Of a stretch of 64,000 nt of DNA, positions 62,913 through 64,000 are shown in pieces. Below the pieces are notes generated by a model. It made no database searches. It was not told the DNA's origin and saw nothing but the letters and a program-made list of their open reading frames with translations. Location of the stretch: positions 13,959 through 77,958 of the forward strand of contig JAGWYT010000001.1 in the NCBI GenBank assembly GCA_018969185.1. The letters are read 5' to 3'. Source of the DNA: Rickettsiales bacterium. GTDB lineage: Bacteria > Pseudomonadota > Alphaproteobacteria > Rickettsiales > UBA1997. The position numbers were made by a program, and so were the translations under genes. The stretch's first letter is position 1. Every line of letters starts with the position of its first letter.

Positions 62913-64000
62913 CTACATAATGTTTTTATAAAAAGTAGTAATTTTGCCTAACCACTGTTTTTCATCTTTGCTGAGACCGCTTTTCAAAACATCAAAAATT
63001 CTTTGGTGATATTCTTTTAACCATTTTTTTTCTGGATAGGTCATCATTTTAAAATCGATTAGGCGGTGATCTATTGGTGCTAAGGTTAAAGTTTCAAATT
63101 GTAAAAACTTCTCATTAAACTTTTTCACTAACATCAAATTCTCAATTCTAATTCCATATTCTCCTTCTTTGTAAAATCCCGGTTCGTTAGATAAAATCAT
63201 ACCTGCCAAAAGTGTTTGATGCGCGTTTTTACTAATTCCACAAGGTCCTTCATGAACTGATAAAAAGCTGCCAACTCCATGTCCTGTGCCGTGATCATAA
63301 TTTAAACCTGCTTGCCATAAGTGATTGCGTGCTAAGGCGTCAAGTTGCGCTCCACTTGTATTAATGGGAAATTTAGCGTGTGCTAAAGCAATATGTCCTT
63401 TCAAAACTCTGGTGAAATTTTCAATAATTTCTTTGTTTGGAGTTCCAATTGATATCGTTCTTGTAATATCAGTTGTGCCGCAGAAATCCTCACCAAAATA
63501 TTGTCCACCAGAATCAATTAAATATAGCGAACCGCCATCGGACCCACTTTGAAATGGGGAATTTAAATCCTCCGGCTTCGCACTTCGTGCTTCAGCCACC
63601 TCCTTTTTCAAAGGAGGTTGGAATAGCGTAATCTTCTTATTAGTTTCTTTGTTAGAGTGATAATGAATTACAGCGCCATTTGCACCAAATCCTGAGATTG
63701 CAGCAAAGCTTTCATATAAAAATGCAGAATTATTTTTTCTAAATTCTAAGAGTTTTTTTGCAGCGGAAATTTCATCAATTTTCTTTTTATTCTTTAGAGA
63801 ATTTTCAAGCCAAAATAAAAATTTTGTAACTGCTAGGCCATCGGCTTCGTGGGATTTAATTGCGCCATTAATTTCAGTTGAATTTTTTTGCGATTTTAAC
63901 AAATCAATGGCGCTATTTTTCTCAATTATAGAAAAATTATTTTTTTCTAAAAGGCTGTAAATCCAGTAATTTGTAGCGTTAGGATCAATCTCAACTTTCT
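62913..64000 (-). CDS. pepP: Xaa-Pro aminopeptidase (M24B, PepP), partial; N-terminus beyond the window end
   Basis: The track ORF starts at a TTG at 63902, but the frame stays open to 64000 (..KVEIDPNATNYWIYSLLEKNNFSIIEKNSAIDLLKSQ..). M24 metal ligands lie in LIDSGGQY, GTTDITRT, HGTGHGVG, SNEPGFY and GIRIENL. Confidence 0.9.
   Translation of the reverse strand, partial: KVEIDPNATNYWIYSLLEKNNFSIIEKNSAIDLLKSQKNSTEINGAIKSHEADGLAVTKFLFWLENSLKNKKKIDEISAAKKLLEFRKNNSAFLYESFAAISGFGANGAVIHYHSNKETNKKITLFQPPLKKEVAEARSAKPEDLNSPFQSGSDGGSLYLIDSGGQYFGEDFCGTTDITRTISIGTPNKEIIENFTRVLKGHIALAHAKFPINTSGAQLDALARNHLWQAGLNYDHGTGHGVGSFLSVHEGPCGISKNAHQTLLAGMILSNEPGFYKEGEYGIRIENLMLVKKFNEKFLQFETLTLAPIDHRLIDFKMMTYPEKKWLKEYHQRIFDVLKSGLSKDEKQWLGKITTFYKNIM
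63538..63630. repeat. Half-copy of palindromic family B inserted in frame inside pepP
   Basis: The reverse complement of 63561-63619, acctcctttgaaaaaggaggtggctgaagcacgaagtgcgaagccggaggatttaaat, matches the B1 first module gcctcctttgaaaaaggaggtg-[hairpin]-cggaggatttagat. It is translated as ..FQPPLKKEVAEARSAKPEDLNSPFQ.. just before the conserved LYLIDSGGQY. Confidence 0.65.

Follow-up and report, generated by a model that had tools for sequence, protein, structure and literature searches.

The window analyzed here, a 64-kb stretch (64,000 nucleotides; G+C content, 32.7%) deposited as DNA of a Rickettsiales bacterium, ends within pepP, which encodes a three-domain Xaa-Pro aminopeptidase of family M24B (positions 62913 to 64000, minus strand, continuing beyond the window end). 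This assignment draws on Pfam matches of the open reading frame (ORF) to Peptidase_M24 (1.6e-41) and Peptidase_M24_C (1e-20), on 100% identity of the product to a 614-residue protein (P0001) from a 144-kb contig labeled "MAG: Rickettsiales bacterium" (MAG, metagenome-assembled genome), and on an AlphaFold2 model. The window holds the C-terminal 361 codons of the gene in an open frame, the N terminus lying beyond its end; adding 253 to a residue number of the window's pepP gives the P0001 number. The nearest solved relatives, human XPNPEP1 (3ctz), C. elegans APP-1, and P. falciparum APP, all have three domains. Residue-by-residue alignment to 3ctz placed the first metal-ligand aspartate of PepP (the D of LIDSGGQY, codon at 63513 to 63515, minus strand) opposite XPNPEP1 Asp415, and the counterparts of D426, H489, E523, and E537 were also kept, leaving all five ligands intact (in XPNPEP1, the ligands are Asp415, Asp426, His489, Glu523, and Glu537). 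Only six residues separate this first aspartate from the end of an in-frame insertion of 93 nucleotides (nt) in the catalytic domain. An essential-type peptidase gene is here left unbroken by a hairpin repeat that is usually sited between genes.

The insertion occupies positions 63537 to 63629 on the minus strand and encodes TLFQPPLKKEVAEARSAKPEDLNSPFQSGSD; it is delimited by the gap relative to 3ctz, ortholog spacing, G+C content, reading frames, and folding. The sense strand reads aag aag att ACG CTA TTC CAA CCT CCT TTG AAA AAG GAG GTG GCT GAA GCA CGA AGT GCG AAG CCG GAG GAT TTA AAT TCC CCA TTT CAA AGT GGG TCC GAT ggc ggt tcg cta tat tta att gat (insert in capitals), translated as ..KKI-TLFQPPLKKEVAEARSAKPEDLNSPFQSGSD-GGSLYLIDSGGQY. 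The original prediction for this DNA had placed an in-frame insertion of about 30 residues directly in front of LYLIDSGGQY, at 63538 to 63630, and had described it as a half-element, the first module of a palindromic repeat family (family B). The insertion and its unbroken frame hold, with 31 codons free of stops in the frame used; codon boundaries shift the borders to those given above. Module 1 is likewise present, but the insert is more than half an element, since the right terminal hairpin and an outer stem are there as well.

Along the sense strand, the insert consists of hairpin H1 (63617 to 63599), the dinucleotide tg, hairpin H2, a conserved tail, and hairpin H3, all on the minus strand. 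H1, cctcctttgaaaaaggagg, is a 19-nt palindrome (63599 to 63617) identical to positions 3383 to 3401; its 3' arm, AAAGGAGGTG, is a perfect Shine-Dalgarno-like (SD-like) sequence, and its 5' arm is anti-SD-like. The variable hairpin H2, gctgaagcacgaagtgcgaagc (22 nt, 63575 to 63596), includes GCGAAGC and folds with a GAA loop and with G/A residues in its internal loop. The tail, cggaggatttaaat (63561 to 63574), holds a second GGAGG and matches positions 49499 to 49512 exactly over 14 nt. H3, ccccatttcaaagtggg (63543 to 63559), also folds and corresponds to the right terminal hairpin of a full element: in a MAFFT alignment it pairs with ctctttttcaaagaggg of the two full copies in the window, with an internal gap of about 65 nt in the pepP copy. 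H1 (cctcctttgaaaaaggagg) stands opposite H3 (reverse complement cccactttgaaatgggg) and, with the outer stem, gives the pepP copy terminal inverted repeats. To judge from this alignment, the pepP insert is an internally deleted element with both ends kept, consisting of module 1 plus the right terminal hairpin.

The outer stem is formed by base-pairing of the flanks acgctatt and gatggcgg, so that all 93 nt fold as a closed three-hairpin unit. The fold energy was -38 kcal/mol as RNA (z score, -3.6) and -19.3 kcal/mol as DNA (z score, -3.2), and the G+C content of the insert was 0.48, versus 0.327 for the window. In a folding scan of the whole window with a sliding 100-nt frame, the insert ranked 13th overall and 2nd among segments lying wholly within an ORF; the 11 top segments were all intergenic palindromes or touched an ORF only at its edge. 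The sole intra-ORF segment that folded more strongly, 22591 to 22690, was rejected as an element because it is Ala/Gly/Thr-rich coding sequence. An intron, intein, or structured RNA was likewise rejected, given no Rfam family at gathering threshold and a length, 31 residues, too short for an intein.

Family B is represented in the window by three copies, two of them intergenic and one in pepP. Full copy 1 (3378 to 3523, 146 nt, plus strand) starts two bases past the stop codon of an asparaginase gene (Pfam; ORF 2338 to 3381), and full copy 2 (49396 to 49598, 203 nt, plus strand) lies between a FadL-type and an XerC/D-type gene, starting just past the stop codon of the former. The two copies are 84% identical over 144 nt and have stops in all six frames. 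In a full element, module 1 precedes module 2, which is an inverted and diverged copy of it (atttaaatcacccg-hairpin-ccaccctctttttcaaagaggg). The pepP insert shares with the intergenic copies exact matches of 21 and 14 nt and a common module order. These matches are far from chance expectation: the 19-nt H1 palindrome was matched four times in the window, versus a shuffle mean of 0.01, and the gapped pattern GGAGGTG-N16-34-CGGAGGATTTA was found three times, once in each of the three copies, and not at all in 100 shuffles. Copies of the family also occur beyond the window in syntenic relatives (e.g., L115:19749-19775). Across 23 full elements the flank consensus was TTAAR on the left, CCTCC..GAGGG at the element ends, and YTTAA on the right, the element end being TTAAR-CCTCCTTTG; elements often abut one another, and the TTAA at their ends could be either target or terminus. 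Database searches returned no relevant Rfam match for the whole window at gathering threshold (and noise only for a full copy at E values up to 10), and no BLAST match for a full family B copy among PLSDB plasmids. Concept queries of the literature recovered no description of family B or of the PepP insertion hotspot described below, and a full-text query with the DNA motif returned primers only.

The intergenic copies show further rearrangements. The loop of H1 in copy 2 is interrupted by a nested insertion of 52 nt (about 49409 to 49460), in turn made up of a pair of small hairpins, caatcgctttagcgattg and cttacttagaaaaaataaattctaagta; one element can insert within another. The XerC/D-type tyrosine recombinase ORF (49582 to 50577, minus strand) ends within the right terminal hairpin of copy 2 (49582 to 49610): its native sequence runs to ..STEIYTHILDAKKQELVFKNHP, after which the element supplies about nine final residues (FSKVFKPSL*) and the stop codon. 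The family B repeat gave this recombinase a C-terminal tail. A 15-nt match to H2 within coaBC (62294 to 62308) was rejected as a repeat, as it encodes the conserved ..KQAIALAK.. motif.

Comparison with other aminopeptidases identified the 31-codon segment as an addition. Relative to 3ctz, PepP query residues 126 to 156 were unpaired, the chain alignment skipping from residue 408 to 410 of the solved structure. Among 116 PepP orthologs in which the distance could be measured, 93 had the base IHY...DSGGQY spacing of 21 residues; the inserted segment was present in none of the 116, nor in solved M24B structures. Thus, the predicted insertion of about 30 residues is borne out, and no ortholog carries the same segment as would ancestral protein sequence. 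At the protein level, an exhaustive HMMER search of 1.84 billion representative proteins with the 35-residue insert peptide (63531 to 63635) returned only one unrelated eukaryote-like repeat protein, and a 70-residue chimeric query gave no candidate in the protein word index. For such a census, the conserved parts of the module translation are too short to reach significance.

Several features of the insert suggest that it is read as protein. Its length is a multiple of three, and it is open only in the frame used and in one antisense frame, whereas intergenic copies 1 and 2 contain two to eight stops in each of the six frames; this pattern is expected only if the insert is read. Full copies start with TTAA-(G/-)-CCTCC and the pepP copy with CCAA-CCTCC. 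TTAA at that position would create an in-frame TAA, and the CCAA in its place may therefore be a further sign that the copy is being read. Retention of the segment in mRNA and protein, as 31 translated hydrophilic residues, appears likely from these features, and the tryptic peptides LFQPPLK and SAKPEDLNSPFQSGSDGGSLYLIDSGGQYFGEDFCGTTDITR would be derived from the insert. In the AlphaFold2 model of PepP (mean predicted local distance difference test [pLDDT] score, 84.5; predicted template modeling score, 0.84), which superimposed on APP-type structures, including 3ctz and 4s2r, with template modeling scores of 0.81 to 0.87, the insert (P0001 residues 380 to 407) had pLDDT values below 50 and no secondary structure and lay between strands 346 to 357 and 410 to 421. 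The model is consistent with a disordered loop, and the surface position expected by the original prediction would follow from its disorder and topology; the coil between two strands is seen in the model itself, and exposure is deduced from it. To judge from the model and the alignments, the pita-bread fold and the five metal ligands are intact, so that the enzyme most likely still works.

The position of the insert proved to be a hotspot. About 19 of the 116 orthologs carry inserts of 6 to 50 residues at the same PepP position; the second most used insertion site was occupied in five orthologs. The hotspot inserts belong to at least nine unrelated families, for example RRLSxVET..., GPRHEDGVT...VTPHLLRGP, TGFVTPSS..., CxPALVAG..., CHAEPVEAS, and SFEKG...PPSFSKR. 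On a neighbor-joining tree of the core alignment columns, the filled orthologs were scattered, mostly beside insert-free sisters, a pattern that requires a minimum of about 16 separate occurrences. For five other filled sites the DNA was fetched, and each contained a long palindrome (five of five; minimum free energy, -54 to -103 kcal/mol, the lowest in L116). These loci share the pepP-coaBC-ruvB-ruvA gene order with the window, so the genes are true orthologs. A 111-nt element is present in L114 (filled) and missing from L117 (empty), sister loci with 93.6% DNA identity. The family filling the site in L116 also occupies two spacers of its own contig and shares a 21-nt core with repeats of the window at 52685 to 52705 and 60551 to 60571. 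Family B itself fills the hotspot in L206, there as a full element in another frame and with a slightly different junction, and it occupies a second PepP site in L207; it arrived in PepP at least three times. The variety of families, frames, and junction offsets at one loop points mainly to a structural and selective filter, and a targeting component at the hotspot may also contribute.

Other observations concern insertions elsewhere in PepP. Further, less used sites lie near P0001 residues 126 to 147, 81, 226, and 327 (L207:1649-3520, encoding P0056; P0009, P0030, P0069, and P0080), and P0056 has two different palindromic elements in a single pepP gene. Four orthologs (P0053, P0020, P0016, and P0087; protein level only) have two to four extra residues at the hotspot, e.g., TNVHFSPNQQAGSLYL, which could be footprints of excised elements. 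The residue just before the insert is Phe in place of Ile in most insert-bearing orthologs.

Module 1 was not confined to pepP or to this lineage. We scanned genome contigs with a pattern of 18 specified bases; at least 113 stretches were listed, over half of them chance matches, and the source genome was not among the matches listed. Some of these matches had an upstream half, CCTCCTTnnnAAA, that the pattern had not demanded. The hosts among the matches listed were alphaproteobacterial MAGs, Ruminococcus and other Clostridia, Elusimicrobiota, Bacteroidota, and members of the candidate phyla radiation (CPR; Saccharibacteria, Parcubacteria, and Peribacteria). Across 46 module copies, H2 took 43 different sequences, nearly all of them hairpin forming (mean z score, -3.0), either as a perfect stem or as a stem with G/A internal loops and GNRA or GAA loops. 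Five MAGs (L001, L007, L093, L103 ["Rhizobium sp. Q54"], and L031 ["Rickettsia typhi"]) are from lake metagenomes and have G+C contents of 33 to 39%; their record titles look mislabeled, and they have repeats in common with the window's relatives. Among CPR genomes (L043:3876-3990, L113, and L050), those of Parcubacteria have modules in tandem, with CCCCC/GGGGG replacing CCTCC/GGAGG in the adjoining unit, a hint that the design is X..X'..X' in general and not bound to one sequence.

A stricter scan of metagenomes yielded 89 nonredundant module copies. Most were intergenic, and nine lay within ORFs of at least 200 residues (six sense and three antisense). Two host proteins showed the module as a clean gap against a solved structure, namely, IleRS (query residues 481 to 527 versus 7d5c) and DapF (query residues 64 to 103 versus 5ha4). 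TrmD, LeuRS, an ABC ATPase, a class I/II aminotransferase, and a Type ISP domain protein were also hosts, as were Mfd (L026), with the module in the same frame as in pepP (PPLKKEVTEPKAKSEDLN), and a CPR DNA polymerase I (PolA, L050); the last two were set aside as clean insertion tests because their module regions were unaligned to solved structures. The original prediction had suggested that the peptide-creating process operates in this lineage and had proposed a scan of all coding sequences of the genome for translated modules. In related contigs, modules indeed occur in frame in IleRS, DapF, TrmD, LeuRS, the ABC ATPase, the aminotransferase, Mfd, and the CPR PolA, and their presence in so many genes indicates that such a process operates in this group of organisms. 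Two separate palindromic inserts, both clean gaps versus 7d5c, were seen in the IleRS of one related MAG (L031:3-2183, minus strand; also L144): the full family B element (query residues 481 to 527) and about 55 residues of a 'GFVTPSP...DGVTNP' family (query residues 261 to 315). In the Saccharibacteria PolA, the 5' nuclease domain contains a second repeat-like insert, some 50 residues long.

Family B is one of several repeats in the window. A second family of palindromes (..GCGAAGTCGAAACCAAG..CTTGGTTTCGACTTCGC..) occurs as four intergenic copies (8541 to 8630, 12009 to 12096, 52681 to 52770, and 60539 to 60630), three of which lie directly past stop codons (der/engA, htpG, and ruvA), with that at 12009 to 12096 between two divergent gene starts; its 21-nt core fills the PepP hotspot in L114 and L116. 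Two intergenic copies of a third family (TGTCATCCTGAGC...GGCGAAGGATCTCAT; 9734 to 9850 and 38867 to 38983) are 81% identical, and their translation (VILS.. / ..AKDL-like) resembles the 'LVILG..SRGS' inserts at another PepP site (P0009, P0030, and P0080). Further spacers (36500 to 36800 and 23912 to 24005) are packed with hairpin modules (gagcgacggagatttatctccgg.. and caaattgacc..ggtcaatttg); the latter spacer is a 94-nt near-perfect palindrome that overlaps the start of a doubtful 114-residue ORF. The window also encodes two giant ORFs, 40982 to 47962 (2,326 residues), with at least 10 stretches of RTX calcium-binding nonapeptide repeats (27-nt DNA periodicity) and an Ig-like domain, and 12230 to 23320 (3,696 residues). 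Tandem paralogous hybrid histidine kinases (29764 to 32337 and 33808 to 36477) are 49% identical, each with a second HATPase domain; length differences of 13 and 17 residues between them were rejected as repeat insertions because they are ordinary linkers. No tRNA, rRNA, or other Rfam family was found in the 64-kb window at gathering threshold.

[quoted passage not shown] The genome and its relatives harbor several families of palindromic modules, nearly all copies of which sit in spacers just past stop codons. One copy would have entered the codons of a beta-hairpin turn just before the first metal-binding Asp, the integrated form consisting of module 1 and the terminal hairpin and lacking internal sequence that the 146-nt full element has. 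Its survival would have depended on where and how it landed, with a length divisible by three, a stop-free frame in use, and CCAA in place of TTAA. The loop would then be translated as 31 disordered, hydrophilic residues that leave the pita-bread fold and the ligands untouched. The site itself is unusually permissive or attractive, as shown by its many families, its repeated occupation, and its filled and empty states in near-identical strains. The insert most likely lacks an adaptive function, such selfish DNA serving as raw material for a new surface loop.

Several observations weigh against this reading or limit it. No autonomous partner was evident: among 129 module 1 copies in about 1.5 Mb of DNA, no gene-sized segment lay between modules 1 and 2 (inverted partner within 150 nt in 33 copies, at 375 nt in 2, beyond 4 kb in 1, and absent in 93), and no transposase domain, Y1_Tnp included, was found among the 19 larger window ORFs scanned against Pfam. 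A direct repeat, cgctat, flanks the insert in a placement that misfits a simple target-site duplication, and the junction between L114 and L117 contains 10 scrambled nt with no evident duplication. The closest PepP ortholog is 69% identical, and this lineage has no close relative with an empty site, so the junctions are placed by protein alignment. Low pLDDT is not proof of surface exposure. Finally, the source is a metagenome-assembled genome, and the translation of the insert is deduced from its nucleotides.

A more far-reaching explanation, which we regard as possible but unlikely, is that module 1 is a previously undescribed mobile hairpin cassette without its own transposase that crosses phyla, from Alphaproteobacteria to Clostridia, Elusimicrobiota, Bacteroidota, and CPR, and whose integration is targeted and not merely filtered. 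Such a cassette would have the form X-loop-X', then a hairpin kept in structure and variable in sequence, then X'-ATTTA, where X and X' are the anti-SD- and SD-like CCTCC and GGAGG. Targeted integration, if true, would explain the recurrent colonization of the PepP beta-hairpin, of IleRS, and of sites in other enzymes, and bacterial proteins in general would be continually supplied with new surface loops by such modules.

Returning to a tolerated selfish copy, we also weighed whether the insert has since been co-opted, either as RNA (in pausing, mRNA stability, or cotranslational folding of the catalytic domain) or as a peptide (in substrate access or partner binding). A role as RNA would fit the perfect Shine-Dalgarno sequence AAAGGAGGUG that H1 sequesters within the insert, whose new loop beside the active-site entrance, six residues from a metal ligand, would fit a role as peptide. 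Repeated occupation of the same site points the same way, as does a module architecture conserved across very distant phyla, in which H2 retains structure while varying in sequence, suggesting constraint beyond mobility. However, the hotspot inserts are unrelated and range from 6 to 50 residues, making a common peptide function unlikely; most orthologs are insert free, AlphaFold predicts disorder, most module copies are intergenic, and presence or absence between close strains resembles neutral turnover. Co-option is therefore improbable. Inactivation, in which pepP is a young pseudogene or the insert goes untranslated (processed out of the RNA or blocking translation), has somewhat less in its favor still. 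The source is a MAG, and long palindromes such as that of L116 (-103 kcal/mol) would be hard for a ribosome to traverse. Against this, the 361 codons are open and match the 614-residue P0001 exactly, the five ligands and their flanking motifs are conserved, and the insert has a length divisible by three and a stop-free frame in use, whereas intergenic copies have stops in every frame. Many independent filled sites are also open elsewhere, an observation subject to ascertainment bias in that only intact ORFs were retrieved. Last, although the window has only three family copies and repeats are a known cause of assembly errors, an ancestral, lineage-specific loop that happens to resemble the repeat, or misassembly of repeat reads into the gene, is hardly credible given the exact 21- and 14-nt matches in a common module order, the absence of the segment from 93 of 116 orthologs and all solved homologs, flanks that both continue one reading frame of one gene, and equivalent palindromic inserts at the same codon in independent assemblies.

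As a tolerated selfish copy, the pepP insert adds uncultured alphaproteobacteria of fresh water, and apparently CPR, to the known range of protein-coding palindromes (Rickettsia and Wolbachia), with a family not in Rfam. The hotspot offers a clean natural experiment: a beta-hairpin turn by the active site of aminopeptidase P, filled by at least nine families in at least 16 lineages, and with filled and empty versions in near-identical strains. It makes testable whether sites are chosen or selectively filtered and whether the loops so created stay neutral or become functional. In practice, such inserts increase the variation in gene length, and in metagenome annotation they give rise to spurious "hypothetical" peptides (PPLKKEV.., SFEKGGG..).

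Among described systems, RPEs are the closest in behavior. RPEs are interspersed palindromes of 100 to 150 bp that are abundant in the spacers and coding regions of Rickettsia, and a related phenomenon occurs in Wolbachia (PMC1779305); a 2024 review regarded in-frame MITE fusions as not unusual and RPEs as the extreme case, with similar evolution elsewhere "conceivable" (PMC10969869). The RPE families are those of Ogata et al. (2000, 2002), as summarized in these two papers (PMC1779305, PMC10969869). Like RPEs, family B consists of interspersed palindromes found both in spacers and in frame within conserved housekeeping genes, adds its peptide at a position compatible with fold and function, and encodes no transposase, and its host was deposited as Rickettsiales. 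It differs in size (84 to 93 nt for the pepP copy, with full intergenic copies of 146 nt and, nested insert included, 203 nt, versus 100 to 150 bp), in its mosaic makeup from small hairpin modules that are also found singly or in different combinations, and in a module architecture found far outside Rickettsiales. A further difference is that one site in one protein is occupied repeatedly by many families; we know of no such case for RPEs. Family B works like an RPE, a likeness of behavior. The protein-coding palindromic repeats of Wolbachia (Ogata, Suhre, and Claverie, 2005, as cited in PMC1779305) exemplify an RPE-type process in Rickettsiales outside the genus Rickettsia; there the host lineage differs from the present one.

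Other palindromic systems share some of these properties. Bacterial MITEs (intragenic ERIC, BOX, Correia/NEMIS, and cyanobacterial elements; PMC10969869) are likewise small and nonautonomous, with terminal inverted repeats, strong secondary structure, and, occasionally, an ORF through the element that fuses with the host ORF. Classical MITEs, however, have a recognizable parent insertion sequence and a target-site duplication, neither of which was found for family B, and the terminal inverted repeats of family B are compound hairpins. The repetitive extragenic palindromic (REP) sequences and BIMEs of enterobacteria are also mosaics of short imperfect palindromes located just downstream of stop codons in head-to-tail clusters. 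In contrast to family B, with copies inside pepP and other genes, REPs are extragenic by definition and linked to a REP-associated tyrosine transposase (RAYT; Y1), and we rejected membership in this class given the intragenic copies and no Y1_Tnp among the ORFs scanned. The intervening sequences of 23S rRNA helices, like the PepP inserts, are palindromic extra segments recurring at one permissive position in scattered lineages; they are excised from the RNA by RNase III, whereas the pepP insert lies in a coding frame and is apparently translated. The process itself is known from Rickettsia, Wolbachia, and other MITEs; its occurrence in this lineage is new.

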